A stretch of 64,000 nt of DNA, taken from positions 32,001 through 96,000 of IMG/VR virus record IMGVR_UViG_3300028045_000007. One strand, 5' to 3'. The translations under genes were made by a program, and so were the position numbers. Each line of letters opens with the position of its first letter. Within the stretch, counting starts at the first letter, position 1. Below are positions 13,074-55,931 of this stretch, piece after piece. The DNA is from a virus. The notes under the pieces were generated by a model. It saw only the letters and a program-made list of their open reading frames with translations. It was not told the origin of the DNA and did no database searches.

Positions 13074-13875
13074 ATCATTTCCCGAAGAACAGCGACTCAT
13101 GGTTCGTGAACTTGCCGAGCAAGGTCACACCCATGTCGCAATTGTTAATGCGATGAGGGAACGTTTTCCTCAAGACTGGAAGGCGAAGAATGCTCATCGT
13201 ACCGTGAGTCGCATACTCAAAGACAACCCAGTAAAGTCCGCGATCCCCACGCCCGACATGCCTATGCCGAGTGTTAAGGTACCCTCGATGCCTAAGACGT
13301 TGGACGAGATGACGCGGGAGGAACGAGCACGTTACATCGAGGCACGCCTCCAAACGACGCCCAGATTTCGCATGGCATTCCGAAGCTTTGCCAAAGAAGA
13401 TAAGGATGTATTTGTCGATGAATACATGAGGATCATCAGGTCTACTGATACTCTCACCGAGGTAGAGGAGCAGGCGTTGTTCGCCGCCATTCTTGAACTC
13501 ATTCTTGCTTTTCAAGCACTTAATCGTAAAGAGAAGGAAGAACAGTGGCGTGACCAATCTTTAGCCGGGGAAATCGACGAGGATGATCCCCGCTATCGTC
13601 GTTTGGTAGAACCCAAGTATCAGAAAGAGTACGATGATCATATGAAGATGTATCAGCGTGGTACAGAGCAACTCAAGATGTCTCGTAGGGATCGTCTCAA
13701 GGAGGTGCGATCACAGAAACAGACGTTGATTGACTTAGCCGAAGAGTTATCGAGTAAAAATGCACAGTCAGAGGTAGCACACGAGATCGAACGCTTAGCT
13801 AAATTGCGAGACGATGAGCTTAAGCGTTTGTTGGAGCTAGGACATATCCATGGAGTGTTTGCGGACTATGAATAA
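13066..13875 (+). CDS. HTH/coiled-coil protein, candidate terminase small subunit
   Basis: N-terminal HTH-like segment, helical C-terminus, position upstream of terL. Confidence 0.45.
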   Translation: MPRSFPEEQRLMVRELAEQGHTHVAIVNAMRERFPQDWKAKNAHRTVSRILKDNPVKSAIPTPDMPMPSVKVPSMPKTLDEMTREERARYIEARLQTTPRFRMAFRSFAKEDKDVFVDEYMRIIRSTDTLTEVEEQALFAAILELILAFQALNRKEKEEQWRDQSLAGEIDEDDPRYRRLVEPKYQKEYDDHMKMYQRGTEQLKMSRRDRLKEVRSQKQTLIDLAEELSSKNAQSEVAHEIERLAKLRDDELKRLLELGHIHGVFADYE

Positions 13876-14824
13876 AGAGCAACTAAAGATAGCGATGTTG
13901 TTTGCTTCTTGGGAAGAATTTGGCGAGGGGTGGAGCACGCCCATTGGCATTAGAGAAGAGCTGAGATCTCGTGGTCACGAGGTACGCCAATATAATCTTT
14001 ATCACGATCAAGGTATATTGTTTGCGGACAATGTGCGTCACTATTCTAATCAGGGTATTAACCAACTGTATCAAGATTTCCATGCGGGCACGTTTCGTCC
14101 TGACGCAATCTTCTGTATGGATTATGGGCCGTGGGACGCGATGCAATTTGGCAAACAGTATTTTCCTGGTTCCGTTTTAGTGAAAGAAGCTGGCGACGAG
14201 CCACAGGCTCACGCACAGCACTGTAGGGCAGCTCCGAGAGTTCATGTTATCTTGTCTCCTGACCTTCAATGTGTTGAACGTTATCACACAATGGGGTTCC
14301 ACGCGGTTCATTGGACGCACCATGCTGACCGCCGTATCTTCTATCCCCGACAGGAGGTGAATATCGAGTTTGATTGTGTGACCACGTGTGGTTCACGTGG
14401 CGAGAACGGTCTCACTGACAAGATTCAGAAGGCTCTCGGGGCTCGTTTCAACAATGAACGCTATTTCTTTGGCGACGACCACGCCAAGCGTCTCTGTATG
14501 GGTAAAATGGTCTTTCAATGTTCACAGTTCAAGGAAATTACTCGTCGCATTTTTGAAGGTATGGCATGTGGTCGCATGGTCATCACGGATCGCATACCGG
14601 ACAGTACCGGACTGTCAGAAATGTTTATTGAAGGTCAAGATATAGTGTACTATGACAGTGCGGAAGACGCTATCAATAAGATTCGTTACTATGCTTCGCA
14701 TGACGTGGAACGCGAAGAGATCGCTGTAAATGGCTACAAGAAGGTAATGGCCTATCATACGGAAGTGCAGCGTTGTGATGATTTCGAAGCATGCGTGCTT
14801 GCCGCCAAGGAGACCTTGGTATGA
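13868..14824 (+). CDS. glycosyltransferase, CgeB/Glyco_trans_1_2-like (GT-B)
   Basis: RRIFEGMACG...ITD...REEIAVNGYKKV..HT. Confidence 0.88.
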   Translation: MNKEQLKIAMLFASWEEFGEGWSTPIGIREELRSRGHEVRQYNLYHDQGILFADNVRHYSNQGINQLYQDFHAGTFRPDAIFCMDYGPWDAMQFGKQYFPGSVLVKEAGDEPQAHAQHCRAAPRVHVILSPDLQCVERYHTMGFHAVHWTHHADRRIFYPRQEVNIEFDCVTTCGSRGENGLTDKIQKALGARFNNERYFFGDDHAKRLCMGKMVFQCSQFKEITRRIFEGMACGRMVITDRIPDSTGLSEMFIEGQDIVYYDSAEDAINKIRYYASHDVEREEIAVNGYKKVMAYHTEVQRCDDFEACVLAAKETLV

Positions 14825-15630
14825 CGAGTAGTGAGCGACATCTACGTCCCGATCAATCACGTTGGGACTTTAACGTACAACGATACAAAGATGATCGTGA
14901 CGTATTTTCGGAAAAAGGATTACTGTCTATTGTTGTGCTTGCACACGGTCGTCCGGAACATACTCATCTTGCCGTGTCGTCAACTATATCCTGTCTTCAA
15001 GATTATCCTGGTGAGATTGAGTGGATCTTTATTGAGAACTGCGATAGTGACGCTAACATGAAGTTCTTTAGGGGATTAGATCTAGAAAGAAAGGTTATCG
15101 TTTGTCAGAGCAACTATGGCATTAATGAGGCACTCAATCAGGGGTGGAAACTGTCTCGTGGCGAGTATGTCATGATTCATGAAAACGACTGGCAAGCGAT
15201 ATGCAACATAGATTTTGTTACGCCAGCCAAACAGATATTTGAGCAAGAGATTGATGTTGGTGTAATACAGTTACGTGACCCACACGATCCGAACGAGAAT
15301 TTTGGACGAGGTAAGCCAGAGTACAATCCCTGGTCCTGCACCGTAGAACAGGTTATGGAAGCTGGCTTTCATATATACGAGAGTCAGACTAGTGACGGAC
15401 ACTCTTATTTCGTGTCGAATCATCCTAATGGATTTAACAACAACCCAGTAATCATTCGGAAGAGTCTATATCATGCTTGTGGATCCTATCCAGAAGCACT
15501 GATGGGCTGCGATCCTCGCCATGGAGAAACAGAGTATCAAGCTCGTGTAGCTTACAAAGGCTATGAGACGGCGTACATTGGTGTGCCTATTTACCAACAC
15601 ATGGGACGAATACAGACTAAGGCGACGTAA
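14821..15630 (+). CDS. family 2-like glycosyltransferase (GT-A)
   Basis: LSIVVLAHGR, IFIEN, NYGINEALNQG..LSRGEYVMIHEND, C-terminal H.G. Confidence 0.85.
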   Translation: MTSSERHLRPDQSRWDFNVQRYKDDRDVFSEKGLLSIVVLAHGRPEHTHLAVSSTISCLQDYPGEIEWIFIENCDSDANMKFFRGLDLERKVIVCQSNYGINEALNQGWKLSRGEYVMIHENDWQAICNIDFVTPAKQIFEQEIDVGVIQLRDPHDPNENFGRGKPEYNPWSCTVEQVMEAGFHIYESQTSDGHSYFVSNHPNGFNNNPVIIRKSLYHACGSYPEALMGCDPRHGETEYQARVAYKGYETAYIGVPIYQHMGRIQTKAT

Positions 15631-15632
15631 GC

Positions 15633-16268
15633 ATGAGAACAAATAAGCTATCTAACGATACGTCAGATGCACATATTATTGGACGTGTATTGTCCATGAC
15701 AGATAACATTCCCAAGTTCATTATTGATGTTGGTGCGTCTGAGGGGCATTACAATAGCAACTCAATGCCGTTAATACTTGAGATGTCTTGGTGTGGCATT
15801 CTGCTTGAACCCATGCCGATTCAGTTTAAGCAATTGATGACAAGATATCAAGACATCGATGACATTCAATGTATCAATGCGGTGTTGTGCGATAACGACA
15901 GTATCGTTGATATGTTTATTCACCCTAATGATGGTGACGGTACCACAGCAGGCAACCATGGTTCGTCACTCATCAAAATGGCTCGTAATAAAATTGTTGT
16001 AAAGGTGCCATCTATATCATATGAGAGCTTAAATAGCTTGCGTAATCTAAGGGATGTAGGAATTTTGTCTATCGATACGGAAGGATACGATTTTGATATT
16101 TTGCGTGGCCTACTGCCTCTTGGTCTGCCAGCAGTTATCATTAGTGAGGTTATTGAGGTGGGCGAAGAAGACAAGGTGCGTTTTATAGAGTCGTTTGGCT
16201 ATCATATGATCATTGATGGGCATTCAAATAAAGCCTGGGCATTACCACATTATATACGGGAGAACTAA
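15633..16268 (+). CDS. FkbM-family methyltransferase
   Basis: IDVGASEG..SNS, GILLEP, LSIDTEGYD. Confidence 0.9.
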   Translation: MRTNKLSNDTSDAHIIGRVLSMTDNIPKFIIDVGASEGHYNSNSMPLILEMSWCGILLEPMPIQFKQLMTRYQDIDDIQCINAVLCDNDSIVDMFIHPNDGDGTTAGNHGSSLIKMARNKIVVKVPSISYESLNSLRNLRDVGILSIDTEGYDFDILRGLLPLGLPAVIISEVIEVGEEDKVRFIESFGYHMIIDGHSNKAWALPHYIREN

Positions 16269-16269
16269 T

Positions 16270-16533
16270 ATGGAAAACAATTTTACGACCGGCGTTCCAC
16301 AGGGCGAAAGTAACGGAAGTGTTTTTCCGGATCAATACGGAAGTGTTTTTCCGGATCAATCGTGCCACTACGTACAGTCAATGCCCTGGACATACGTGCC
16401 GTATCCGACCAAATCTGCTCGTGAGCAGGTACAGGACGAGATTCTTATTAAGTTAGCCGAAGCAATTGAAGGCAATGACTTAAAGAAGGCAAGACAATTA
16501 ATTGAACTGGCAAAAACCCTAAAGGAACTGTAG
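16270..16533 (+). CDS. hypothetical protein
   Basis: GGAG RBS; contains duplicated GSVFPDQ. Confidence 0.6.
   Translation: MENNFTTGVPQGESNGSVFPDQYGSVFPDQSCHYVQSMPWTYVPYPTKSAREQVQDEILIKLAEAIEGNDLKKARQLIELAKTLKEL
16313..16360 (+). repeat. perfect 24-bp tandem duplication
   Basis: ACGGAAGTGTTTTTCCGGATCAAT x2, in frame. Confidence 0.95.
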
Positions 16534-16546
16534 AAGGAGATTAGAT

Positions 16547-16756
16547 ATGCCCAAACAAAATGACAAGGTATTGATTGATGGCGTGAAGGCACGCATTGAA
16601 ACATTCTGGGGACAAGGCAAGCACACTGTGTATAAGCTTGACGATGGTCGGGTAGTTTTTGATATTAGTGACGATGCTATTGTAGCAGATGAGCCAGTGA
16701 TCAAGAGAGGTCCCGCCCCGAAACACCCATACAAGAAGCCTAGCTTGGATGACTAA
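16547..16756 (+). CDS. hypothetical protein
   Basis: AAGGAG RBS, 69 aa. Confidence 0.65.
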   Translation: MPKQNDKVLIDGVKARIETFWGQGKHTVYKLDDGRVVFDISDDAIVADEPVIKRGPAPKHPYKKPSLDD

Positions 16757-17234
16757 GATTAAGCCAACTATTATTGTTGACACTCGGGAGAAGCTCCCTT
16801 GGGACTGGGAAGACGACGACGCTTTTGCGTCAGTAATCTATCGTAAACTTGACGCGGGTGACTATAGCATCGAGGGTCTCGAAGATGTCATTTTCATAGA
16901 ACGCAAGGCGTCTGTGGACGAGTTGTATAACAACTTTACCACGGGGAAGAAGCGTCTTGCGGCTGAGTTCGACAGGGTGACCGATCATAGGGTCAAGATC
17001 TTCATTATTGAAGAGACGTGCGAGGACATTCTCAATCCTCGTAAATACTACGTCAATAAAAAGAAGATCAATCGCAAGAGTCCAAAGATGCCTCCTGCTG
17101 TTGTAGCCTCTAGTCTTACTAATTTAGTGTTAGAGCAAAACGTACACGTGATCTTTGGTGGAAGTCGAGCACAGTCAATGGTTCGTGGTATCCTTTTGCG
17201 TGCCTGGGAGCTATATCAAAAAGGTCAACTATGA
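16749..17234 (+). CDS. ERCC4/XPF-type nuclease
   Basis: VDTRE, LDAGDY, IERKASVDEL motifs. Confidence 0.9.
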   Translation: MTKIKPTIIVDTREKLPWDWEDDDAFASVIYRKLDAGDYSIEGLEDVIFIERKASVDELYNNFTTGKKRLAAEFDRVTDHRVKIFIIEETCEDILNPRKYYVNKKKINRKSPKMPPAVVASSLTNLVLEQNVHVIFGGSRAQSMVRGILLRAWELYQKGQL

Positions 17235-19255: not shown

Positions 19256-19262
19256 TGTACTA
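19252..19262 (+). promoter_or_regulatory. putative late promoter (TTAGTGTA)
   Basis: TTAGTGTACTA upstream of the portal gene; the motif recurs at operon starts. Confidence 0.65.
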
Positions 19263-19310
19263 GAGACATGAGCAATTATATCGCAATCTAATTACCCTGG
19301 AGCCCCTTCC

Positions 19311-21734: not shown

Positions 21735-21752
21735 TCATATGAGGGATCTCGT

Positions 21753-25529: not shown

Positions 25530-26570
25530 ATGAATTACGTACAACGTTATCCACAAAAAGCCATTGAGGCTCTACGTGCAACGGCGAGTCCGGACAGTGA
25601 TGTTCGTTGCCGTGCTCAAAAGACCCTTGCGGCTGAATTGAATGGCCCTCTTCGTCAGGGCGTATTCGATCGTGACAACCTGGGTGGGATTTACGAGAAG
25701 CAAGTTCTCGCCCCCGGTGCCCAGGCTAACTACCCGCTTGACTTCGTAAGGCCCGGTGAAGAAGATGATTACATGGCCTTCACCCTGCCGAAGCAAGGGC
25801 GTGTACCCGAGCGTCACGTTGAAGGCGACGAGCTATGGGTTCCGACGTTCAACGTTGGAAACGCCATTGACTGGTCGTTGAAGTACGCGAAAGAAGCACG
25901 TTTCGACGTGATCATGCGTGCTATTCGTGTTTACGAAGCTGGTTTTGTTCGCAAGATCAACAGTGACGGCTGGCGTACCATCCTTGGTGCTGCTGATGGT
26001 CGTGGCACTGTTGTGACAGCTAATGGTGCCGCTCCGTTTACTGGCTCGACGCTTGTTCCGACTGCGGCTGCTGGACAGTTCACCAAAGAACTGATCAGTC
26101 GCATGAAGACAGCGATGACTCGTGGTGCTGGTGGCAATGGTAACTCCGGTCGTCTGACCGACGTTTACCTGTCGCTTGAGGCCATGGAAGACATCCGTGC
26201 CTGGGACGTGGACGAGATTGACGAGTTTACTCGTCGCGAGATCTTTGTCAGTAAGGAATACGGCCTTGCCCAGATCTACGGGATCGTTCTTCACGAGATG
26301 ACTGAGTTTGGCGAAGGCCAAGAGTACGAAGAGTTCCTCGAAGTAACTCTTGCTCGTGCCCACTCGACTGCCGGGTCCGTAACCGCCAGAGAGTACTGCA
26401 TCGGTCTTGACCTGTCCACGATGGACAGCTTCGTGATGCCGATTCGCGAAGAACTGCAAACTTACGAAGACCCCGCTCTCTACCGTGAGCAGCGTGCCGG
26501 TATCTTCGGATGGATGGAGCACGGCTTCGCCGTTCTTGATCCGCGTCGTGTTCTCATCGGAGAATTCTAA
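25530..26570 (+). CDS. major capsid protein (HK97 fold inferred)
   Basis: 346 aa, strong RBS, biased codons, C-terminal GWMEHGFAVLDPRRV, followed by a terminator. Confidence 0.85.
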   Translation: MNYVQRYPQKAIEALRATASPDSDVRCRAQKTLAAELNGPLRQGVFDRDNLGGIYEKQVLAPGAQANYPLDFVRPGEEDDYMAFTLPKQGRVPERHVEGDELWVPTFNVGNAIDWSLKYAKEARFDVIMRAIRVYEAGFVRKINSDGWRTILGAADGRGTVVTANGAAPFTGSTLVPTAAAGQFTKELISRMKTAMTRGAGGNGNSGRLTDVYLSLEAMEDIRAWDVDEIDEFTRREIFVSKEYGLAQIYGIVLHEMTEFGEGQEYEEFLEVTLARAHSTAGSVTAREYCIGLDLSTMDSFVMPIREELQTYEDPALYREQRAGIFGWMEHGFAVLDPRRVLIGEF

Positions 26571-34737: not shown

Positions 34738-37700
34738 ATGGGTAAAGTACAACTAGAAGCCGTCCTGAAGCTCGTTGACGTTCAGATCAACCCGCAGGTA
34801 TTCCAGAAGATCAGCCAGTCTGTGGCCGGTATGCCGCCAGCCCTGGGTAAGTCCAGCGATGCACTCAAGAAAACCGGCGTACATGCCGACACGCTCAACA
34901 AGAAGCTCAGGGGCACAAAAGAAGTAATCAACGCAAACGAGCGTGCAGCACGCCTGTTCTTGCGTCGTATGGCCCAGTTTGCCATCCTGCTCCCCACGTT
35001 CGCAACGCTGAACCGTGCTATCCAGGGCGGCGTGAAGTTCCTGTTTGATTTCGACAGTGCCCTGAGGGACATTGTACGTATTGACATTGGTAATTTGAAG
35101 GACCGTATGGAAGAGGTGGGCGATGCCGCCTTGGCAACCGCTGTCAAATATGGAGTGACAGGCACAGAGGTTTTGCGTGCAACCCGTATCTTCAAGCAGG
35201 CTGGTTTTACAATCGAGGAGTCTCAAGCGAAGGCAGAGGCGGCCATTCTTGCCACGCAGATCTCTACGTTGACTTCTGCTCAGGCGACCGAAGTGTTCAT
35301 TGCTGCCCAGAAGCAGTTTGGAGCAGAGGGTCAGAACTCTATTTCAGTTCTAGATAAACTCGCTAAGGTTGAAGACCTTGCTGCCGTAAACGCTTCCGAT
35401 GTTGCCGATGCCTTCCGTACTGGTGGTAACGCTCTTGCTGAATTCTCGAAAAGCATTGATGATTCTGTTGGTATCATTGCTGCCCTTAGAGAGCAGAGTC
35501 GTAAGTCCGGTCGTGAAATTGGTACGTTCCTGAAGACCATTCAAACTCGTATGTTTGCTGCCGGTGAAGCTCGTAGCTCTCTTGAGTCGCTTGGTGTCAC
35601 GGTAGAGAATTTAGATGGCTCGTTGCGTCCAACGCTTAGTGTATTAGACGATCTTAAAGATAAATTCGATGGTCTAACGCAAGCACAGAGGACAAATGCC
35701 GCTAAGTCCATCGCTGGTATTCGTCAGTTCGAATCGCTGTTGGCTGTCTTGAACTCATTAGAACGTGCAAACGAGTTATCGGCGGCATCTAGCAGGGCTG
35801 CCGGTACCGCCGATGAGAAACGTGTTATTACTGATGCTAAACTAGAACGTCAGGTTGGTAAGCTTATTGCTCAAGGACAAGCGTTTGCAGAAGCTATGGG
35901 TGATGCTGGATTAGAAGATACGTTAGCGTCTGCATTAAAAATGGCTGAAAGGCTTCTTTTAGTATTTACTTCTTTCTCTAATGTTCTTAGTGATATTGGC
36001 GGAAGTATTGTTCCATTATTAGCACTTAGCGGCATTACCCTTGGTCGTAGCGTATTCGGCCTTGGCGGTGGAGGTAAGCCAGGAGGCAAACCAGGAGATG
36101 CCACAAAGGGTAATGTTCAAAAGCCAGGACTTGACAAGAACTTTATTGGCCCGTTAAACAAAACACAATCTCAAATTGCTTCTTTCGGTACACAAATGAA
36201 GCGTGCTGGTTCTATTGTGGCCGATAGTACCAAAATTACCGCCATGAGAGTTGCTCAGGGTAGACAATTGGTTACTATTGGTTCTACAGAGATCACTGGT
36301 GTTAAAGCAAGGGCAGCAGCACATAAACAACTTACTGCTGCTATTAAGCAAAATATATCCGCCATCAAGGCTTCTAGTGCTGCACGCACAGCTCAAGGTG
36401 GTGGGTTAAAAGGAGCCCTGGGTGGAGCCGCCGGAACCGCACTCTTTACTCTTGGTGGTGCAACTATTCCTGCGTTGTTTGAAAGTATAGCCAAGAGGTT
36501 ACGTTCTTTTGATAATAACATTGCCAATCTCGGTGCAGAGACTCTAGACGCGAGTAGTAGTACTCTATCGATGGCCGCTCAGTTTGCTGTACTTGGAGGT
36601 AAGGCTTCTGCGATAGCGGGGGCCGTTGGTGCCGTATCAAACGCTATGCCCAAGATCTTAAATGCAATTGATGACGAGTTTGTTGCTCGCAAAGAACTTA
36701 AAAATACGATCAAAAATCAGCAGAAGGAAGAGGGCATTGCTGCCAAGCTTGGGTCTAGAAGTCAAGCCGGAACGGCTGTTGCTAGTAAGCTGTTTGGTTC
36801 TTTTAGTGCGGCAGCAGAACGTGCTGGCACTGAAGGCGGACAAGCTCTTCATAGGGAATTACAAGCTGCCTTCGAGGAAATAGGCAAGGACTTTGGCACT
36901 ACCGGGCAAGATTTTGCAAAGACGTTTCTAACTCCAGTTACAAACGAATTGGGCGGAATTGTTGATAGTAATGCTATTGGTATCGACACACTAAAACAGC
37001 TTAAAACAGAAATTTCTGATGCTTCTGGTTTAACCGGTATCGATATTGCCATTGTTGCACACAAAGAACTCCTCAAATCAATTGCCGAAGAAAATGGTAC
37101 TCTGAAGGAATATGATCGTCTTATCAAGGGCGTCTCTGATGGCACCTTACGTTCCAATGAATCACTTAGTAGTATGTTGGACGTTCTCGGCAAGGGCACC
37201 ATTAAGTTCAATGAATTTACTCTTGGGGCAACGTCTGTCAATAAGTCCTTAAGTGAATTAGGAAAAATAAGTAAGCTTCAGGGTGCTATCGATAGTTTCC
37301 GTACATTAGGACTAGAATTAGATCTTGCTAAACTTGGTCCGGAAGCTTTGGCTGACTCTGTTGTTAGAATGCAGCAAGAATTACTACTGTCAGAACGAGA
37401 GTTTGGTAATACGAGCAAAAGACTAGGAAAAGATATCGATGATCTTACTGGGCACATCAGTGAACTTGGTATCTTTAGTAAAGGTGCAGAGCTTTTTCAA
37501 GCCGCTCAGGAAGGTTTGGATTCTATGGATTCAAGCGAAATCGCAGCGTTCAATCAATTTATGAAGGAACAGCCACCAGCGGTGCGTGAGACCATAGCAG
37601 AACTTTTGAAATTACGCGAACAACAACGTCAAGCCGAACTTGATTTTCAGAATCAGCAAAATGCATTACAGGGTGAAATGATCGCTCGTCGCAAGGCAAT

Positions 37701-39921
37701 GTTTGAGACTGAAGCACAGGCGGCACAAAACGCTTTTGAGTCTACACGTAGGTTTTCTGCTGAGCTAGAAAAGTTTGGTGACGCCGTTACAACCGACGTG
37801 TTGTCCCAGTTCCAGAACATTGGACTTGGTGACGTTGAGGATGTTCTTGCCGGTACTTCAGACCTTAGTGGTGCTCTTCAACAAATGATCATAAATGCGT
37901 TTGATCCTATCTCGCAGGCCGAGCAGGATCTAGCCAACGTGACAGCTACCACCCAAGCCGAACTTGATATTTTAGCAAAGCGGTTAGGTATTGTTACTCA
38001 AAAGTTGTCCGACGAAGCAAACGCGGCAAACGCCGCATCGTTGACTGCCCAAAAACATGCCATCACGCTTGATATAGAGAAAACTATTCAATCTGGTGCA
38101 ATCAGTGCCACAGAAGCCAAGATCAAAATATTAGAATCCGAGAAGGACGCAGCAGAAGATGCCGCCGAAGCCGAGAAAAAGCGTTTTGAGTTACTCGAAA
38201 AGCTAGCGGAAGCCTCTCGCGATTTCGAAAACGAGCTACGAGATGTACGCGATGGGTTTGAAGAATTTAGTAAAGACAAGATCGCAGATCTACTCAAAAA
38301 AGAGACAGATGTTCGCAGCGAATTAAAGGACGCTCAAAAAGATGTTTTAAGTAGTACTACTGAACTTGCCGATGCGTACAATGCCCTTGGCAAAGCTCAA
38401 TTGGAGTTCAATGGGGCCATTGCTGAGGCACAGCTAAAGAGCAATCTACTAGCACGCGACATTGCTACACTGACTGGTGGTCTTGTAACATTTCAAAGCA
38501 AGCTATCTTCACTCAACAACGCTTATCGTGACGTACTAGGTAACTCTAACATCACGCTACAGAAGCGTATTGAGCTTGAGCGTCAACTTGCCGACGAGAC
38601 CTTGGCGTTCTTGCAGCAGGCAAGTAGTGAAATTACTCAAGCTGGTATTGGTATCTTTGGTCAGTCCAGTCAAGAGAACCAAGCACTCGGCCAGGGAATT
38701 GCTGGATTACAACATGTTGCCGACCAGTTAGGTGGTTCGTTCGAAGGGTTCTTGAATATGTCATCTGGAGACTTCTCTGCTGTTAGCGAAACGTTACTGG
38801 GGCTACCGACAGAATTCCGTCAGCAAATGCTTAGTGCGTTATCATCTCTGCCAAGCACCATGAATATTGGAGGATTCAATGTTGATCAATTGACACAGGC
38901 TCTCGGTCAGGTTGGTGCCGGTGTTGCACCTGACGCTGGCTTGCCGTCCATCGAAGAATTGAATGGACAGCAGGTTGAGCAGTTGACCAAGCTTCAAGAG
39001 CTTGCTTTGCAAGATGCTCAACTACAGTTTAGTCAAGTGATTGCTGCCCAACAACAAGTTGCTGCCGCACAAGAGGCCGCCGATGCTGCTCAGATTCTAC
39101 AAGAGCGTGCCAAAGAAAATCTTGTTGCGGTTCGTGATGCTGTACTAGAAGAGAAGGCAGTCCTTGATTTTGCTAATGAACAGCGTAATGAGCTACTTAA
39201 TGCCGTGATTGCTGCCGACGACAAGAACACGCTCCTCATGATTGAGAGAGAGGCTCAGGCGTTTGCGGATCAAAATGCCGCCTTTAGTAAAATCGGAGAC
39301 AATATTGTTACGGGTATTGCTAGTGCCATTGGTTCTAGATTGGCTGTTCTAAATGTTGCCGCACAGTCGAAGGGATATATCCCCAACTTCAGTAGTGGCA
39401 ACTTGAGTCCTGGCGAAGCAGCCGGTGTGCTTCGTGCAGCTTCTCGTGAGAAGCGAGCTATGCCCCCCGGAGCCGGTCTTGCGGTAGCTAATACTAGTGA
39501 AGCCATTATCCCCATGCGTAGCACTGGTTTTATTCCCAACTTCCAAAAAGGTAATGTCTCTGGCGACAGCAATACATCCGAGCTATTGGCCGAAGTCGTC
39601 CGTCAATTAAACGAACTCAACGATACGTCTGATGTGATCAGTTCTAGTAATACTCAAATTCAAAGCAACACTACGGGTGATGCTAAGGATGGAGCCGCTG
39701 GTGGTTCTCAGGATGTTACTATCACCTTACAGACAAACCAGAACAATACCGTTTCTATTACGGGACTTGAGTCGTTACGTGAAGAGATTGCTACAGTTGT
39801 GAGGGGAGCCGCAACCGAACAAGTGGATAAACAACTGGAAGCACTACTGGAAGAGCTAGATAGTGTTATCGTTGCTCTACAAGAGCGTGGTCTATTGAGT
39901 TCGTTTGGTCAACCGAGGTAA
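34738..39921 (+). CDS. tape measure protein
   Basis: 1727 aa, Ala/Leu-rich helical; TP901-type core (SGREIGTFLKTI..R, LESLGVTV..DGSLR, IAGIRQ). Confidence 0.92.
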   Translation: MGKVQLEAVLKLVDVQINPQVFQKISQSVAGMPPALGKSSDALKKTGVHADTLNKKLRGTKEVINANERAARLFLRRMAQFAILLPTFATLNRAIQGGVKFLFDFDSALRDIVRIDIGNLKDRMEEVGDAALATAVKYGVTGTEVLRATRIFKQAGFTIEESQAKAEAAILATQISTLTSAQATEVFIAAQKQFGAEGQNSISVLDKLAKVEDLAAVNASDVADAFRTGGNALAEFSKSIDDSVGIIAALREQSRKSGREIGTFLKTIQTRMFAAGEARSSLESLGVTVENLDGSLRPTLSVLDDLKDKFDGLTQAQRTNAAKSIAGIRQFESLLAVLNSLERANELSAASSRAAGTADEKRVITDAKLERQVGKLIAQGQAFAEAMGDAGLEDTLASALKMAERLLLVFTSFSNVLSDIGGSIVPLLALSGITLGRSVFGLGGGGKPGGKPGDATKGNVQKPGLDKNFIGPLNKTQSQIASFGTQMKRAGSIVADSTKITAMRVAQGRQLVTIGSTEITGVKARAAAHKQLTAAIKQNISAIKASSAARTAQGGGLKGALGGAAGTALFTLGGATIPALFESIAKRLRSFDNNIANLGAETLDASSSTLSMAAQFAVLGGKASAIAGAVGAVSNAMPKILNAIDDEFVARKELKNTIKNQQKEEGIAAKLGSRSQAGTAVASKLFGSFSAAAERAGTEGGQALHRELQAAFEEIGKDFGTTGQDFAKTFLTPVTNELGGIVDSNAIGIDTLKQLKTEISDASGLTGIDIAIVAHKELLKSIAEENGTLKEYDRLIKGVSDGTLRSNESLSSMLDVLGKGTIKFNEFTLGATSVNKSLSELGKISKLQGAIDSFRTLGLELDLAKLGPEALADSVVRMQQELLLSEREFGNTSKRLGKDIDDLTGHISELGIFSKGAELFQAAQEGLDSMDSSEIAAFNQFMKEQPPAVRETIAELLKLREQQRQAELDFQNQQNALQGEMIARRKAMFETEAQAAQNAFESTRRFSAELEKFGDAVTTDVLSQFQNIGLGDVEDVLAGTSDLSGALQQMIINAFDPISQAEQDLANVTATTQAELDILAKRLGIVTQKLSDEANAANAASLTAQKHAITLDIEKTIQSGAISATEAKIKILESEKDAAEDAAEAEKKRFELLEKLAEASRDFENELRDVRDGFEEFSKDKIADLLKKETDVRSELKDAQKDVLSSTTELADAYNALGKAQLEFNGAIAEAQLKSNLLARDIATLTGGLVTFQSKLSSLNNAYRDVLGNSNITLQKRIELERQLADETLAFLQQASSEITQAGIGIFGQSSQENQALGQGIAGLQHVADQLGGSFEGFLNMSSGDFSAVSETLLGLPTEFRQQMLSALSSLPSTMNIGGFNVDQLTQALGQVGAGVAPDAGLPSIEELNGQQVEQLTKLQELALQDAQLQFSQVIAAQQQVAAAQEAADAAQILQERAKENLVAVRDAVLEEKAVLDFANEQRNELLNAVIAADDKNTLLMIEREAQAFADQNAAFSKIGDNIVTGIASAIGSRLAVLNVAAQSKGYIPNFSSGNLSPGEAAGVLRAASREKRAMPPGAGLAVANTSEAIIPMRSTGFIPNFQKGNVSGDSNTSELLAEVVRQLNELNDTSDVISSSNTQIQSNTTGDAKDGAAGGSQDVTITLQTNQNNTVSITGLESLREEIATVVRGAATEQVDKQLEALLEELDSVIVALQERGLLSSFGQPR

Positions 39922-41433: not shown

Positions 41434-41993
41434 TGGTTCAGTTCCCTGAAATACAGTGGATTCAGCAAGATCCAACAATCGACCCATCTGGGTTCCGTGA
41501 TGCGGCCAGCGTACCCGCTGGTTTCTTGAAGGTGCTAAGTACCAGTGCCGGTGGCGTGCTCGACTATGGTCAGCTCAACACAACCGGCTCCGGTGCCATC
41601 ACTACAACCTATCTAGCGTATGCTCGTATCAGCGACATTGCAGATGCCAGCGGCGTATTCAATATGCGTTTGTTCCTAACCAACACTGATGCCTGGGGTG
41701 CTGGCACCTTCCGTTTCCTAGAACAGAAACAATTGCACTTTGTTCCTAGTGTTTCTCTTGACTCCTCGGCAGCAAACACACCAACGGTAGTGCCTGTGTC
41801 TACTAACTTCCTGGGTACGATTAGCGAGCCAGCTTGGCCAGATGGCCAGCCGTGGATGAGTGGTATCCTAGACAACGACGCTAGTCAGTACGTGTACTGT
41901 GCTATTGAGGTTGGCGTTGATGTGCCAGTTGGTACATACGGAGGAGCCGGTGCTGGCACATTCCGATACAGACTACTATACGACTTCTCATGA
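41433..41993 (+). CDS. putative minor tail protein
   Basis: Paralogous to 42794..43477. Confidence 0.6.
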   Translation: MVQFPEIQWIQQDPTIDPSGFRDAASVPAGFLKVLSTSAGGVLDYGQLNTTGSGAITTTYLAYARISDIADASGVFNMRLFLTNTDAWGAGTFRFLEQKQLHFVPSVSLDSSAANTPTVVPVSTNFLGTISEPAWPDGQPWMSGILDNDASQYVYCAIEVGVDVPVGTYGGAGAGTFRYRLLYDFS

Positions 41994-42619
41994 GCGATCT
42001 CGGTCCCCAGTATAACGAGAGGTCGATTCTCGCTAAGTTTTTCAACCATCAAAGACATGGCTTTTTGATAGAGGTGGGTGCCGCTGATGGTATCACACAT
42101 TCGCATACCGCGTTTATGTTTGACGAGTGGGAATGGCGTGGCGTGTTGATTGAACCACATCCAGAATTTTTCTCTGCACTACAGGCACGTTACGAAAACA
42201 ATCCAGATGTACTAACGCTCAACGGAGGCATTCGTGAAGTTCCGGGCAAGCACAGATTCTACATGAATGGGCAAATCTCTCGTTTTCTAGATGATCAAAA
42301 GATAGGTGAGGGATTTAGTAAGGTCCCCGGGTACGAGGGCCGTATAGATGTAGAGTGTACTACACTGACAGACGTGTGTGAATCATTAGGAGTACCTCGG
42401 GAGTTTGATTTCCTTACTGTAGATGCTGAGGAGACAGACATAGAGGTCTTGAGCACGCTAGACTGGGAGCGTTGGCAACCACGCTTGGTATGTATTGAGC
42501 ACAGCATGCCATTACCTGTCATGAATGGATTTTTCAGTGAAAGGTCGTATGTGCAGCTTGAAAGAAACACCGGCAACACATTCTTTCATCGTATTGAAGC
42601 GAAGGTGGAAGACTTATGA
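41990..42619 (+). CDS. FkbM-family methyltransferase (second copy)
   Basis: IEVGAADG..SHT, WRGVLIEP, DFLTVDAEETD, PRLVCIEH. Confidence 0.9.
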   Translation: MSDLGPQYNERSILAKFFNHQRHGFLIEVGAADGITHSHTAFMFDEWEWRGVLIEPHPEFFSALQARYENNPDVLTLNGGIREVPGKHRFYMNGQISRFLDDQKIGEGFSKVPGYEGRIDVECTTLTDVCESLGVPREFDFLTVDAEETDIEVLSTLDWERWQPRLVCIEHSMPLPVMNGFFSERSYVQLERNTGNTFFHRIEAKVEDL

Positions 42620-42804
42620 ATACTGACCACGAAAACATTGAGCTACGCAAGATCGGCGAGCCCGAGCCTGACTCTCTACCCAGGGGTATCAAGCTCATAA
42701 TAGTAGATAGGCACACGGTCTTTGTACGTCGTGTTCTTGGACGTTTCATACCGGTAACAGAATCAGAACAGGAGGAGCTTCACAGGAAGCATATTGTATC
42801 ATGA
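42616..42804 (+). CDS. hypothetical protein
   Basis: 62-aa coupled ORF. Confidence 0.5.
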   Translation: MNTDHENIELRKIGEPEPDSLPRGIKLIIVDRHTVFVRRVLGRFIPVTESEQEELHRKHIVS

Positions 42805-43477
42805 ATCAACTGGAGCTATTACAATGCCTGCTGGCGACTTCCCCATAGTACGTATCTTTGAGTGGGATACAACAGAGGTAGCGTCCCCGGTCGGTGACCG
42901 TACGACGCCCGGGGGAACGTTTGCCTTCAAACAAATGGTATCGCTGGGCTGTGCGAGTGCTGACCCTCTTGACCCGGCAACATCCGGAACGCTGGTATTC
43001 CCTGGTACGCAGTTTGACCACACGTCATCGCCCTATGCTTCAGAGTTAGCGTCAACGCCCGTAGCCATCACATTCAATATCGCAGTGAGCGGTACGGCTA
43101 TTTCTGACATTAAACTATATCTCATAGATGATTCTGCTTTTCAAGCGAGTGTAGACGAGGGGCTCGATAGAGCCTTCATGCAGTATGCTCCTAGCGGATC
43201 AATTTGGAAATCGAACTTCACACTACCGTCTGGGTCTATAGAGCGTATTCCCACTACAGTACCAAGCGTACAAAACATCAGGCGTCAAGATGGTTCTAAC
43301 GCACTCGTTGGTACTGATGACACCAATTCGTCCGAATTCGTATATCTGAATATTGTGGTGCCTCTTGGGGCACCCCTGGGGACATTTGGAGTGTGTGGTT
43401 CTGGGTTATTGAGGCTTGGATTAGTTTTTAATTTTTGGAACAACGATTTTATTCTGGAGTTTGGAGATGTCGGATAA
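42794..43477 (+). CDS. putative minor tail protein
   Basis: FP...PT.VP..N...D...S..VY..I.V....P.GT.G..G.G shared with 41433..41993; start may be the ATG at 42824. Confidence 0.6.
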   Translation: MYHESTGAITMPAGDFPIVRIFEWDTTEVASPVGDRTTPGGTFAFKQMVSLGCASADPLDPATSGTLVFPGTQFDHTSSPYASELASTPVAITFNIAVSGTAISDIKLYLIDDSAFQASVDEGLDRAFMQYAPSGSIWKSNFTLPSGSIERIPTTVPSVQNIRRQDGSNALVGTDDTNSSEFVYLNIVVPLGAPLGTFGVCGSGLLRLGLVFNFWNNDFILEFGDVG

Positions 43478-44000
43478 AACCTGTACTAAGTGTCAAACCT
43501 CTAAAATATATGACGACTTCCACAGGGATCGCACCCGTAAAGATGGATACTTTCCCCAATGTAAGACATGCACGAGGCTTTATCGTCAAAGTGAACACGG
43601 GGCAAGGTTACACCGAGAAGGAAACCTACGTTTTCAACAAACACCAAAAGGTAAAGCGTGTCTTCGTAGGGCACAAAGCAAGTATCAACAGTCACCTAAA
43701 GGCAGACTGATGTATCAACAGGCGGCCAGACGACGATTAGCACGTATTGCTGATGCTGACATGTCGCTTACCGATGATGACATACGCCGTGTTCACGAGA
43801 AGTTTAATCATAAATGCTTCAATTGCGGCAATACAGAACGTCTAGAGATTGATCACCATTATCCTTTGTCTATGGGATTTGGCCTTACTGAAGACAACGC
43901 AGTGCTGTTGTGTAGGTCTTGCAATGCGTCCAAAGGAAACAGGATGCCAGAGGATTTTTACCCCGAAGAGAAACTTAGAGTGCTGGTTAGTGTAATATAA
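43467..44000 (+). CDS. HNH endonuclease (free-standing, homing-type)
   Basis: N-terminal CTKC..CKTC zinc finger; CFNC...IDHHYP..G...N...LCRSCNASK. Confidence 0.9.
   Translation: MSDKTCTKCQTSKIYDDFHRDRTRKDGYFPQCKTCTRLYRQSEHGARLHREGNLRFQQTPKGKACLRRAQSKYQQSPKGRLMYQQAARRRLARIADADMSLTDDDIRRVHEKFNHKCFNCGNTERLEIDHHYPLSMGFGLTEDNAVLLCRSCNASKGNRMPEDFYPEEKLRVLVSVI
43987..43997 (+). promoter_or_regulatory. putative late promoter (TTAGTGTA)
   Basis: TTAGTGTAATATAACGT; nearly identical to the copy at 55158. Confidence 0.65.
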
Positions 44001-47800: not shown

Positions 47801-49749
47801 AAAACGGTGAAGGAACATTGAGTCGGGGTGCATTCGATTTACATGTCTTCCCTGGGCCTCGCGAGTCGTCCGATCTTGGGGTGCAGTGCAGTGGTTTTAC
47901 ATATGCAAGCCAAGAGCCGCCCGCTACTGCTGGTGGTCTCATGCCTCCCTTTATGATGTCTGGTGTTCGTTTCGAAAAACCACGAGAAGATTTTTCTATT
48001 GGTTTCTTGTATATCAAAAAGAATGCGACCGCTACTGAATTTGATACTATTATTGCTTATGGCATGGTCCCGGCTGCCATAACTGACGAAACCAACGACA
48101 ATGATAGAGGTTGGGCGATTGGTATGGACTCCAGTGACAACATGCGACTAGTGATGTCGCTTGCACATACAGATGATGGTACCGGCGAAGGTAGTATGTA
48201 TCTCAATACTACTAGTAGACCGATATGTTCCGGCCAAACACTCTGTGGTATGTTCGAAGCTGCCCAATGGTATGATGACGAACGCGATTTTGATCGATAT
48301 CGCCATGGTACACAACGTGTACCGAGACCAGATTTTTGGAGTCATTATTGCTGGACGTATAGTGCGGCCGCAAAAAAACTATCGTGTTATGTGAATGGGG
48401 CTTTGGTTGATCAGAAAGTGCTGAGTTATGGCATATATCCACAAACTCCCAATGATCCAAAAGCTAGGTATCTCACAATGTACCAACACACGCGAGACCC
48501 TTGGGTACAGGGTGATGATATAACTAATGATCACGAAGGCTCCATGACCGATCTTTGTTATTTCGACAAGACACTAACACAAGAAGAGATTAGATACATC
48601 GCATTGAACGGCATCGACAGTGCCGTTGGCACCCCCGTGAGCGGACTAACTGGCGGCTATGTTCGCGGACAAGATACTGGTTCTGGCCTTATGGGTGGTA
48701 TGTCACGAGGAGTTGGACCTGTTTCCGGATTGTTTGGTGGATATATGCCGGGCGGTGCAGTGGCAAGCGGTTTGTTCGGTGGCTTTGTATCTGGCGTTGT
48801 CTTTGGTGATGGCACCATCGGTGGCTTCGTGCGTGGCCTAGACACCGTTTCTGGTATTGTTGCCGGTTATATTCGTGGCGTTGATGTTGGCTCCGGAATG
48901 ATCGCTGGCTACATTCGTGGCCAGGAAGTTGGTTCCGGACTATTTGGTGGCCTTGTTCTCGGTGCCCAACCCGTCAGTGGCCTGTTTGGTGGCTTTATTA
49001 GGGCGGCAGACGTAGGTAGCGGACTACTCGGCGGGTTTATGCTTGGTGGTCTAGCTGGTAACATGCATTTTGATGCTGGATTTAATCTTAGTGTATTGGC
49101 TGCGGAAGATTTTGATGCACGGCTTGAGGTTGCCAAAACAATGTCAGCCGACTTTGATGCCAAGCTTATTATCTTCCAAAATGAGCAGCCTCCCCTTGTA
49201 GAGATTCTGATTCCTGGCACGACCGTGACGGGCTTGTCAGGACCATTCAATCAGTATTTGATTGGTAGTGCGTCCGGACAACAGGGCAAGGCTATCACAC
49301 AAACCAAGTGGCATTTTGGAGATTTCTCGCCACCCGAAAGCGTTAGCGTTAGTGGCATTAGTTACTATCCGATACAGCATAATTTCGTTAACGATGGCTA
49401 TTATATTGTGCGATTTGAAGCCATAGATTCTGATGGGCTGCACGCTTCAGCGACAAGGATTTTAAACGCTACAAATGGTGCTGACCCAGTAGTCATTAGT
49501 ATGTCTGGCGTACCACGTTCTGGTAATGCGGGATTAGAGGTGGACTTTGTTACTAACGTCGATATTCTACCACCGAGCGTTACTATTTTGTCACAACTGT
49601 TGCATTTTGACGACGGACAAACTACAATGGCTTTCCATCCAACGCACGTGTACACCGAACCAGGAACATACAAACCGATTTGGTGTGTACGGGATTCACG
49701 AGGTATGATTTGGTGCGATAGCCTTGAGGCGGGCAGTGATGTCCTTTAG
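44800..49749 (+). CDS. large tail fibre/adhesin: four LamG-like domains, 14-aa repeat shaft, two PKD-like domains
   Basis: Domain starts LVGFWPL, LVAYHTF, IVGYWPA, LVGYYRF and ends such as RALLPAEI and KTLTQEEI; WHFGD and HVYTEPGTY. Confidence 0.8.
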   Translation: MADLINDGSLVGFWPLLEPSGAFVYKNYSPAYGKHPSGISFDMHVAVADLQYDEEHSSYWPGGTEFTNISSGNLIRGYCVQGHWKLKSTGSPPLSKYLTLGCGGKTQVQQCLAPAVAQSGFTVGAWLYPNSQGFLEAYTESASIGSAANDWNTMNARAHTMLGQFRAYTGNSGWLMGISGNPARSTQFNFEPEAGDTLQAFVSMEKANAAVSTGFLETPIESGCYTHIAFSYRYVDGTNNEIVLYKNGRVTASGTTTDDLTLDNTNLTGASNHRPFAIGATDSETATNYTPYYYRTGGWGNLMSGVYYFRRVLHEGELQEMHERGGLVAHDSALAPSQEVLLSDPDLVAYHTFTEPGFGDISNNHSPLVGVHDMGYRGAGKLQVPGPYGEGMTYGDGASTYGYLAASSGTCLDALSQGSWTISFLVAPPHAASRSNNIFCSWGSVTTSTSATAMPAATPLTNPTAGLCFSVSGVATRQVCIIEVYSTGDVEDTDNILVFSLDSTLDYFHGACTHIALAYDDSTKGIAAYADGVQCGSGTFTNSLTDQLLSVTSKGFPLMWTNGIKDDLTTSYRGVHATSFQDGDLGSIVVCKRALLPAEIRGIALSGINYTSLYRTRHDPRIVGYWPASDFNIDDILVEDEARCWGELDGHLVRGDSDPRNDQWYLFNRQNDGTVRYNQFGSRDLPPELASYGNLGITSGTFSPRGAGGGTVNLADAVDNRSSITNLTSRYKPYFEESDDMPQNVGADYLLSYEVTPSGDIPKTLGAYASTLTAPMHNSLLHEYAYDGNKDQRSFLTTELAEQGSGVTLVWVGYSDVPLVSGNLAYGVPSRVVLHTRFTLPQNVDGFSAGTTPLDISLWINGELIQRRPSTSIDAKIWSDQAPDGSADADILHFGGIAGKPSYISLYTTSDSGLGEIYLRNMFIMKGIFLSGEVEALAASGIQSPAIGGFTDSQSKTQVTIADSNLVGYYRFNGFAGGGSGTTDLSSNGNHLFGAQQSLVENGEGTLSRGAFDLHVFPGPRESSDLGVQCSGFTYASQEPPATAGGLMPPFMMSGVRFEKPREDFSIGFLYIKKNATATEFDTIIAYGMVPAAITDETNDNDRGWAIGMDSSDNMRLVMSLAHTDDGTGEGSMYLNTTSRPICSGQTLCGMFEAAQWYDDERDFDRYRHGTQRVPRPDFWSHYCWTYSAAAKKLSCYVNGALVDQKVLSYGIYPQTPNDPKARYLTMYQHTRDPWVQGDDITNDHEGSMTDLCYFDKTLTQEEIRYIALNGIDSAVGTPVSGLTGGYVRGQDTGSGLMGGMSRGVGPVSGLFGGYMPGGAVASGLFGGFVSGVVFGDGTIGGFVRGLDTVSGIVAGYIRGVDVGSGMIAGYIRGQEVGSGLFGGLVLGAQPVSGLFGGFIRAADVGSGLLGGFMLGGLAGNMHFDAGFNLSVLAAEDFDARLEVAKTMSADFDAKLIIFQNEQPPLVEILIPGTTVTGLSGPFNQYLIGSASGQQGKAITQTKWHFGDFSPPESVSVSGISYYPIQHNFVNDGYYIVRFEAIDSDGLHASATRILNATNGADPVVISMSGVPRSGNAGLEVDFVTNVDILPPSVTILSQLLHFDDGQTTMAFHPTHVYTEPGTYKPIWCVRDSRGMIWCDSLEAGSDVL
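48637..49056 (+). repeat. ten degenerate 42-nt (14-aa) coding repeats
   Basis: Consensus [VG]SGL[FI]GG[FY][VI]RGxx[VPT]. Confidence 0.9.
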
Positions 49750-49758
49750 GAGTAAGTC

Positions 49759-53124: not shown

Positions 53125-53127
53125 AAT

Positions 53128-55161: not shown

Positions 55162-55168
55162 TGTAATT
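55158..55168 (+). promoter_or_regulatory. putative late promoter (TTAGTGTA)
   Basis: TTAGTGTAATTTAACGT upstream of 55254. Confidence 0.65.
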
Positions 55169-55253
55169 TAACGTAGACATTGGTATATATCATAGTTAAG
55201 TCTTAAGGCGTATTCTTGCGGGATAGCGACTTTTCGATTCAGGAGTTACAATA

Positions 55254-55931
55254 ATGGTATCAGGAATTAGATTTTTAGCTTGCTCTGGAGCATTAGGCAA
55301 CACTGTTGCGTCTTTGTATGGCAACGGGATGTCGTCTATCGGCCTGGAGATATTTGCTTTGGAGGTTGGTGCTGATGGCTCGCCAAACCGCATGGGCTTT
55401 TTCGGTGCTGCCGGTGCCCCAAACAGTGCCGTAATTGTTGGACAACACCAAGATCGTACGCATTGCACCAATGCTGCGGGTGCAGATCTCGGCCAGATGA
55501 TTAATGCGAAATACACTGGTGCTTCCACTGTAGAGCATTCTGGCGTACCGTTTACTGCTGGCTTTGCTGCAATTCCCAGAGAGTCTGGTACGCTATTATG
55601 TCGCTTTAAGGATCCAAATGATGGGGCGGTGATTACACAGTCGGCTTCATTCCGTGCCGTTAACTTTACCGCTGCGTCGGGCGTGCCCGACATTAGTGAT
55701 CTTGCAACTGACATTACTGTCTATGCCGTCCAGTTGCAGGATACAAGCGGTAACGCAGCCGATAGTACGTGGACCGAGATTTCAAGCGGAGGTTCGGCAC
55801 CAGGACTTAGCCTTGCTGATCAGTCGCTTGAGTCAAACATTCACGATTTCCACCTATTGGTTAGTGGTGCCCCTGCTATTGCTGGTCGTAAAACTAACTT
55901 CGGCTACTGGATACAACTAGAGTTCCTGTAA
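55254..55931 (+). CDS. putative structural protein in its own transcription unit
   Basis: Own promoter, AGGAG RBS and terminator; Ala/Gly/Ser-rich. Confidence 0.65.
   Translation: MVSGIRFLACSGALGNTVASLYGNGMSSIGLEIFALEVGADGSPNRMGFFGAAGAPNSAVIVGQHQDRTHCTNAAGADLGQMINAKYTGASTVEHSGVPFTAGFAAIPRESGTLLCRFKDPNDGAVITQSASFRAVNFTAASGVPDISDLATDITVYAVQLQDTSGNAADSTWTEISSGGSAPGLSLADQSLESNIHDFHLLVSGAPAIAGRKTNFGYWIQLEFL

Follow-up and report, generated by a model that had tools for sequence, protein, structure and literature searches.

The neck, tail, and fiber proteins of the uncultured phage represented by IMG/VR record IMGVR_UViG_3300028045_000007 are marked with a short serine-glycine (SG) tag, [APV]-S-G-[VIL]. 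The tag is real, with specificity for both serine and tail proteins; strong purifying selection keeps its positions across the phage clade, and each set of tail proteins carries about 35 strict sites and about 100 loose sites, meaning SG alone. The window analyzed here is a stretch of 64,000 nucleotides comprising bases 32,001-96,000 of this single 154,408-bp virus record, which has an estimated completeness of 99%; the phage itself is referred to as G000, and other G labels denote related IMG/VR genomes or records. The preferred reading of the tag, which sequence evidence puts at a probability of roughly 0.4, is that its serine accepts an O-linked sugar in the cytoplasm, added by soluble glycosyltransferases encoded by the phage.

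A serine-glycine tag in neck, tail, and fiber proteins

Enrichment was expressed as observed counts compared with shuffles of the residues within each protein. By this measure, the neck, tail, and fiber proteins of G000 contain 105 SG dipeptides compared with 49 expected, and among all 400 dipeptides SG is the most over-represented in these proteins (z 7.7, with the runner-up at 4.1). The distal tail set of seven proteins holds 89 SG versus 42.1 expected (z 7.9), with GS at 42 versus 42.3 and TG at 23 versus 35.7, and the neck and proximal tail set of five proteins holds 17 SG versus 8.5. The excess is confined to these proteins, as counts are near expectation in the head set (15 versus 12.8), in the tape measure protein (8 versus 11.5), and in all remaining proteins (188 versus 180). 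An initial annotation of this DNA had proposed a virion glycosylation system on the basis of hand counts of SG and had named composition-corrected enrichment as a check; the excess survives that correction in the neck, tail, and fiber proteins, with GS at expectation. The hand counts themselves were reproduced exactly, with 39 in the 1649-amino-acid (aa) fiber, 14 and 11 in the proteins starting at positions 49759 and 53128, 8 in each of those at 39925 and 55254, 6 in each of those at 28964 and 30069, and 4 and 5 in two small paralogs, as were the comparison counts of 1 in the capsid protein, 1 in the terminase, 8 in the tape measure, 4 in RecA, and none in the primase, the identities of these comparison proteins being taken from Pfam.

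The sequence context given in the initial annotation, [AVPSG]-S-G-[VILAT], is correct and narrows to [APV]-S-G-[VIL], which occurs 34 times in the tail proteins of G000 compared with 2.0 expected (∼17-fold, z ∼21); the shorter SG[VIL] occurs 60 times compared with 10.1. The excess is specific to serine, with TG[VIL] depleted (3 versus 9.2, 0.3-fold) and the corresponding values being 6 versus 9.5 for AG (0.6-fold), 6 versus 8.7 for DG (0.7-fold), and 1.4-fold for NG. Outside the tail set, the four-residue motif is found twice in head proteins (0.6 expected), once in the tape measure (0.5 expected), and at 1.6-fold in the rest of the genome. At the 95 sites that lie beyond a repeat in the fiber, the position before the serine (-1) is alanine, proline, or valine, with V, T, P, or I common at position -3 and Y, F, or L at position +2. 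Position +1, directly after SG, favors V, I, or L and is hydrophobic at 61% of these sites versus a background of 33%, a preference seen with SG alone among X-Gly pairs. Other patterns in G000 range from VSG (4.9-fold) and T.SG (2.4-fold) through S[AG]xT (1.7-fold) and GSP (1.1-fold) to SGS (0.7-fold). Both serine codon families, TCN and AGY, are used at the SG sites, in many different hexamers, which indicates selection on the protein rather than the DNA and rules out a DNA-level motif.

Chance, a compositional artefact, or the multiplication of repeats and paralogous domains could in principle create such an excess. Around ten of the fiber's 39 SG sit in a diverged 14-residue repeat of the type SG-L-F-G-G-Y/F-x-R-G-x-D-x-G and are hence not independent, and two of the small tail proteins are paralogous. 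This explanation is nevertheless extremely improbable, because shuffle z-scores range from 8 to 22, because 95 sites are left once the repeat is removed and merely 5 of 107 SG fall in segments that are paralogous by BLAST, and because 21 related loci and three distant genomes that differ in guanine-cytosine (GC) content show the pattern again; the shuffle tests and comparison genomes together refute repeats, paralogy, or chance as the source. Other than one pair of small paralogs, the tagged proteins have no BLAST similarity to one another, and the presence of the tag in at least ten sequences without detectable homology points to a shared reader acting in trans. Tandem Repeats Finder detected no tandem repeat in the fiber at the DNA level because the fiber repeats have diverged there; at the protein level, the 14-residue units may form a beta-solenoid segment.

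Conservation of the tag positions

The tail proteins of G002, a 182-kb relative with 40-82% protein identity, show an equal SG excess in the equivalent proteins, with 35 [APV]SG[VIL] motifs compared with 2.1 expected. When twelve tail proteins of G000 and G002 are aligned (overall identity 55%), 85 of 104 SG (82%) lie in a matching column, compared with 42% of other serines, 71% of other glycines, and the ∼30% expected if the residues varied independently. Pairs of glycine with a residue other than serine are conserved at 40% in the same proteins (NG 50%, DG 38%, AG 32%, TG 28%), and in eleven non-tail proteins 8 of 26 SG are conserved; Fisher tests give p values of 2e-15 against other X-Gly pairs and 1e-6 against non-tail SG. 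At the greater distance of G017 (36% identity), 16 of 35 SG are still common to both phages, versus 14% for other X-Gly pairs.

The 502-aa tail-tip protein allows the positions to be followed in depth. Among 120 homologs with 53-72% identity, its eight motif serines are 96-100% conserved (mean 0.99), compared with 0.49 for other serines, and the +1 residue remains V, I, or L. The family contains 10 fixed SG columns, versus 0-2 for any other dipeptide tested. An AlphaFold2 model of the protein (predicted local distance difference test score, pLDDT, 79) is built of sheet-helix modules that repeat, and its Foldseek matches, to tail tube, Dit, and baseplate-hub proteins, are weak. Of nine family-wide SG positions, the model puts seven in loops or where a strand meets a loop, another within a strand, and the last in a helix.

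Occurrence in relatives and in control phages

All 21 related IMG/VR tail loci show the same signal, with SG at ∼2.0-2.4-fold and the four-residue motif at 10-16-fold. A profile search of IMG/VR with the capsid protein recovered 271 relatives in three tiers, and downstream of the capsid gene the motif is enriched 8-14-fold in the core lineage (capsid at least 77% identical), 5-8-fold in the second (∼60%), and 0-15-fold in the third (44-49%), compared with ∼1-fold in genes upstream of it. Among the more distant genomes, the tail proteins of G021 (complete, GC 47%) hold 134 SG versus 52.9 expected and 26 four-residue motifs versus 2.3 (11-fold), and those of G017 (108 kb, GC 33%) hold 122 versus 57.8 and 19 versus 1.8 (10.5-fold). 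The signal is weaker in G024 (complete, GC 36%), with 87 SG versus 50, 5 motifs versus 1.6, and no depletion of TG[VIL]. Of four scans with single proteins for distant relatives, three returned none. A distant homolog of the 502-aa protein was also seen on an unrelated 25.6-kb contig from Logan accession SRR22674481, with a PF13524 gene nearby, and several tail proteins on that contig are SG-rich (17 versus 5.1 and 15 versus 3.7) and lack the [APV]SG[VIL] flanks; the flank preference around SG may differ between clades.

Viruses without the system were represented by two control phages, lambda and T4. In the tail proteins of lambda, SG is in mild excess (32 versus 22, 1.4-1.5-fold) and the four-residue motif is at expectation (1 versus 1.0), and when the lambda proteins L, I, and J are compared with a relative 69-76% identical, 9 of 17 SG are conserved, with other serines at 53%; target proteins at similar divergence retain 33 of 37 SG. 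The baseplate, sheath, tube, and neck proteins of T4 have an SG ratio of 1.01 and one motif versus 1.1 expected, with 6 of 27 SG conserved in tail proteins of a relative at 49% identity. The signal is thus no general feature of phage tails, and the equal enrichment in other phages that the initial annotation had set against its own claim in advance was not seen in T4 or lambda. A generic beta-turn or tail-protein bias is ruled out as the whole explanation by these controls together with the NG, DG, and TG comparisons.

Glycosylation enzymes within and beyond the window

The initial annotation had tied the tag to four enzymes of the late gene block, a GT-B glycosyltransferase (PF13524), a GT-A glycosyltransferase (PF00535), and two FkbM methyltransferases (PF05050). 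Pfam confirms all four assignments, and the Ser-Gly pattern proposed for tail, neck, and fiber proteins holds as a genuine, serine-specific excess confined to those proteins, but its link to the four named enzymes is not supported. The complete genome G021 lacks all four yet has the motif at 11-fold, and G021 and G017, both tagged, are without the enzyme block upstream of the terminase, so the suggested co-occurrence of SG enrichment with these genes fails. In each of these two genomes, the nuclease and terminase genes come almost immediately after a homolog of the 311-aa protein that precedes the block in G000. BLAST detected no real homolog of GT-B, GT-A, or FkbM in G021, G024, or G017, the only match being 40 residues at E 4e-4 in G017. 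Orthologs of the GT-B enzyme are present in 14 of 15 core-lineage records, making it core only in the closest lineage, and the FkbM family occurs in 2-3 of 12 relatives. The tagged genomes without these genes rule out GT-B, GT-A, and FkbM as necessary readers of the tag, and sequence comparison of GT-B and GT-A with the PDB returned nothing informative. The glycan had also been described as short and O-methylated; with FkbM accessory and the enzyme block missing from G021 and G017, neither term describes a property of the lineage, and a 20-kb island of further enzymes suggests a complex rather than a short glycan.

This island lies beyond the window end, at 99.8-120 kb of the genome, and its content was checked by Pfam. 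It encodes four GT4-type, four to five GT2-type, and two CgeB-like transferases, along with S-adenosylmethionine-dependent methyltransferases, a guanosine diphosphate (GDP)-mannose 4,6-dehydratase (E 8e-104), an epimerase/reductase, and an enzyme resembling inosine monophosphate dehydrogenase or guanosine monophosphate reductase. The GDP-mannose 4,6-dehydratase is found in 12 of 12 relatives, and the whole 154-kb genome encodes at least 12 glycosyltransferases by matches to PF13524, PF00535, and PF00534/PF13692.

The first gene of the island, at genome positions 99,823-101,634 and ∼3.8 kb beyond the window end, encodes a GT4 enzyme of 603 aa with a PF00534 match, four invariant cysteines arranged as an inserted CxxC...CxxC, and a C-terminal DUF4214 domain. 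Its EX7E motif is represented by E368 and E376, which are invariant in 13 orthologs. The AlphaFold2 model has a GT-B fold (pLDDT 81, predicted template modeling score 0.80), and Foldseek matches it at E ∼1e-15 to GT4 structures such as MshA, PimB′, and BshA, with a chlorovirus NY2A glycosyltransferase as the top PDB neighbor (3oy2, E 1e-15); the latter match is no better than those to many cellular GT4 enzymes and so does not indicate a shared function. The GT4 turned up in 20 of 27 related records searched, namely in 13 of 13, G017 among them (38-78% identity), and in seven further ones, with G021 and G024 among these. The seven without a match are two records of 92-112 kb (45-67% complete) and five fragments of 19-34 kb, so that those two incomplete records are the only exceptions among the further ones of at least 80 kb. 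It is the glycosyltransferase most consistently found in tagged genomes, every one of which has it, its conservation (55-78%) is above that of most structural proteins, and in G000, G017, and G021 it holds the same position, separated from the DnaE gene before it by just two or three small open reading frames. In G011 and G020, the GT4 is split within an open frame of 958-1014 aa.

In a Kyte-Doolittle scan, which is a crude method, none of the proteins encoded by the genome had more than one hydrophobic segment. The lack of a polytopic membrane protein implies that the glycan machinery is soluble and operates without flippase, polymerase, or oligosaccharyltransferase, and it rules out polysaccharide export by the phage itself. 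The genome also has no hydroxymethylase of the thymidylate synthase type (PF00303), so that this route to glycosylated DNA bases is missing, which weakens DNA as the target of glycosylation.

Glycan acceptor or structural rule

Fold alone can hardly account for a pattern that recurs in at least ten unrelated proteins, excludes threonine, is near-invariant in position, and is missing from T4 and lambda; such a pattern suggests a common reader, and the enzyme content makes a cytoplasmic glycosyltransferase the most economical candidate for that role. If a glycosyltransferase does read the tag, its serine would take an O-linked sugar in the cytoplasm, and soluble phage-encoded glycosyltransferases would add the glycan residue by residue before or during tail assembly. 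The 603-aa GT4 may be the initiating enzyme, the other island enzymes could lengthen the glycan with 6-deoxyhexose, and the GT-B, GT-A, and FkbM enzymes of the window would merely elaborate it in some lineages. For the clade as a whole the proposal is put forward more tentatively: judging from its genes, a large, uncultured aquatic clade of 150-180 kb phages, with at least three sublineages and GC contents of 33-48%, may possess an autonomous cytoplasmic O-glycosylation system that combines a strict sequon, [A/P/V]-S-G-[V/I/L], a GT4 reader bearing a Zn ribbon, and extension with 6-deoxyhexose by the 20-kb island, coating the whole tail but not the head at ∼100 fixed serines.

Several observations weigh against O-glycosylation at the tag. 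In the 502-aa protein, the whole excess resides in the 10 ancient fixed columns, and sporadic new SG are neither enriched nor followed by a hydrophobic +1 residue, which is as expected of a structural motif and unlike a shifting glycan shield. SG still ranks first among dipeptides in 127 distant members of the family (887 versus 520, 1.7-fold), and in homologs as distant as E ∼1e-13 some of the fixed columns remain SG and others have become TG, AG, NG, or DG, with the excess fading smoothly with distance from 3.0 to 2.6 to 1.7. The GT4 adjoins the DnaE gene, which leaves room for a different GT4 substrate, and G024 carries the GT4 although its tag is weak (3.2-fold). No relative without both tag and GT4 was found among the related records searched, and no cultured relative was found by megablast or by tblastn of three proteins.

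Much of this would suit a purely structural explanation, in which the tag is a clade-specific turn or beta-bulge, such as a type II turn entering a strand, Ser being at i+1 and Gly at i+2, that is retained for the capping of the backbone by the Ser hydroxyl, and in which the glycosyltransferases serve another target, whether the host envelope via host lipid carriers, DNA, or small molecules. Such an explanation has a substantial chance of being right, though one short of even. Besides the restriction of the 502-aa excess to fixed columns and its smooth decay in very distant homologs, it gains from the modeled location of most sites at hairpins and strand-loop boundaries, from the mild SG excess of the lambda tail, in which no glycosylation genes are involved, and from the failure of the four first-named enzymes to track the tag. 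It does not readily account for the classical turn pairs NG and DG, which are neither enriched nor specially conserved in the same proteins, for the exclusion of threonine, for the recurrence of one pattern in non-homologous proteins with domains as varied as tube-like, LamG, PKD, and fiber repeats, or for the lack of the pattern in T4 and lambda tails.

The tag on many unrelated tail proteins at conserved positions is equal evidence for any reader in trans, and the serine might instead be phosphorylated, acylated, or ADP-ribosylated, be modified by a host enzyme, or be recognized by an assembly chaperone. These options appear improbable, since the proteins that were scanned revealed no kinase, acyltransferase, or ADP-ribosyltransferase and since glycosyltransferases far outnumber every other class of enzyme in the genome; we know of no precedent for a chaperone needing ∼100 sites per protein set.

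Tagged proteins and their genomic setting

The coordinates of the tagged proteins, the enzymes of the window, and the internal controls are collected in Table 1. The late operon occupies the plus strand and starts ∼12.5 kb into the window with the 311-aa protein, which has no assigned role, followed by the GT-B, GT-A, and first FkbM genes. Next come an ERCC4-like nuclease, the large terminase, the portal, several head-region open reading frames, and the capsid protein, then the neck and tail genes, the 1727-aa tape measure, and the 502-aa tube-like tip protein. The later part comprises the two small paralogs, with the second FkbM gene and an HNH endonuclease between and after them, and then the 1649-aa LamG/PKD fiber and three further distal proteins. 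Downstream of the distal tail genes lie RecA, DnaB, primase, a PD-(D/E)XK nuclease, ClpP, and DnaE.

Table 1. Tagged tail proteins, candidate glycan enzymes, and internal controls, with positions in the window
Feature	Position	Strand	Remarks
Neck/proximal tail protein, 188 aa	27856..28422	+	3 SG; 2/3 common to G002
Neck/tail protein, 341 aa	28964..29989	+	6 SG vs 1.3 expected; 6/6 common to G002 (69% identity), 3/4 to G017 (39%)
Putative major tail tube protein, 472 aa	30069..31487	+	6 SG; 6/6 common to G002; role from gene position
Tail-tip/hub-like protein of tube-like domains, 502 aa	39925..41433	+	8 SG, each followed by V/I/L
Minor tail protein, 186 aa	41433..41993	+	4 SG; paralog of the protein at 42794
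Minor tail protein, 227 aa	42794..43477	+	5 SG; 5/5 common to G002 at 48% identity
Fiber with LamG and PKD domains, 1649 aa	44800..49749	+	39 SG vs 18.3 expected; 33/38 common to G002 at 48% identity
About ten diverged 14-residue protein repeats in the fiber	48640..49060	+	SG-[LIMV] in each; from translation
Distal tail/fiber protein, 1121 aa	49759..53124	+	14 SG vs 8.4 expected; 12/14 common to G002
Distal tail protein, 677 aa	53128..55161	+	11 SG vs 5.4 expected; fast-evolving (32% identity to G002), 4/11 SG common
Distal tail protein, 225 aa	55254..55931	+	8 SG vs 2.8 expected; 2 GS
GT-B glycosyltransferase, CgeB-like, PF13524	13850..14824	+	Head of late operon
GT-A glycosyltransferase, PF00535	14791..15630	+	51% identical in G002; absent from G021, G024
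FkbM-family methyltransferase, PF05050, accessory	15633..16268	+	Absent from G002
FkbM-family methyltransferase, accessory, inserted between tail paralogs	41990..42619	+	Absent there in G002
Major capsid protein, negative internal control	25530..26570	+	1 SG vs 1.2 expected
Tape measure protein, negative internal control	34738..39921	+	8 SG vs 11.6 expected; 1/7 conserved

Neither Pfam nor PHROG gave a match for the tail tube candidate. The HNH endonuclease (43461-44000) sits among the tail genes, and as both it and the FkbM gene inserted between the paralogs are absent from G002, they resemble mobile cassettes more than core functions of the tail. The ERCC4-domain nuclease (16749-17234) lies directly upstream of the large terminase, and in the same place in G002, G017, G021, and G024; since no recognizable small terminase was seen, this nuclease may act in packaging. 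The large terminase homolog of G017 (G017:C1:43740-46805) is 1021 aa long, with its matching halves ∼400 residues apart, and the spacer may be an intein or other insertion. The phage itself also encodes a ClpP protease (61915-62571) and a full-length DnaE-type alpha subunit of DNA polymerase III (63254-64000, continuing to genome position 98,562).

The sole match in bacterial genomes is contig NZ_JAILWB010000012.1 (157,945 bp), which looks like a whole phage genome of this clade and is part of a metagenome-assembled genome labeled Hydrogenophaga sp. With a phage GC content of ∼48%, this placement is probably a binning error and not a host assignment.

Comparison with known glycosylation systems

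Mycobacteriophages glycosylate their virions with phage-encoded glycosyltransferases, and the glycans are reported to lie at the C-termini of capsid and tail-tube subunits (Freeman et al. 2023, Cell Host Microbe 31:1216, as cited in PMC12619734). The system proposed here is similar in that the phage's own cytoplasmic glycosyltransferases would decorate structural proteins of the virion. It is unlike those of mycobacteriophages in that the capsid protein is untagged and the candidate sites are ∼100 dispersed, position-conserved Ser-Gly pairs in neck, tube, tip, and fiber, with the six SG of the tube protein at residues 42-285 of 472 rather than at its C-terminus, and in that the enzyme set is much larger, comprising at least 12 glycosyltransferases plus GDP-deoxyhexose synthesis. 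In the literature searched, phage virion glycosylation has been reported for only a few mycobacteriophages, and no acceptor sequon has been described.

Closer in its proposed mode of action is the pair Aah and TibC, which O-glycosylate many serines of beta-rich proteins in the cytoplasm, reading a strand-loop-strand in which the acceptor sits where the loop starts; their substrates are the autotransporters AIDA-I, TibA, and Ag43, and Aah has no sequence consensus (PMC3835316). The phage system would likewise modify many serines in the cytoplasm, and its genome has no membrane machinery such as a flippase or oligosaccharyltransferase. It differs in its sharp four-residue pattern and in the families of its candidate enzymes, which are GT4 with EX7E, GT2, and CgeB-like, unlike the heptosyltransferases Aah and TibC.

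Chloroviruses of the PBCV-1 type use their own soluble glycosyltransferases, a pathway with GDP-mannose 4,6-dehydratase and epimerase/reductase, and non-canonical sequons; as viruses of eukaryotes, they carry these glycans N-linked to the capsid protein. Soluble virus-encoded glycosyltransferases and the combination of GDP-mannose 4,6-dehydratase with epimerase/reductase are shared with the phage described here. Short sequons are known from the general O-glycosylation of Bacteroidota, in which D-(S/T)-(A/I/L/V/M/T) receives a lipid-linked glycan in the periplasm, and from the eukaryotic xylosyltransferase, which acts in the Golgi on the Ser-Gly site of proteoglycans and needs acidic flanks. 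The phage tag is similarly short, with serine followed by a small or hydrophobic residue as in Bacteroidota or by glycine as in proteoglycans, but unlike both systems it is accompanied by no membrane machinery, excludes threonine, and is flanked by A/P/V and V/I/L.

Significance

Should the tag prove structural instead, it would still amount to a Ser-Gly building rule for tail proteins that is clade-specific and unusually sharp. If the sequon reading is true, phage virion glycosylation would have its first defined sequon, and glycosylated phage tails would become predictable straight from sequence. It would also help explain the big glycosyltransferase islands of many large aquatic phages, and it would provide a compact, soluble, sequon-directed O-glycosylation system with possible use in glycoengineering. 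For the phages themselves, glycan-coated tails, if present, would have a bearing on host recognition, protection from proteases and grazers, and the stickiness of particles in water.

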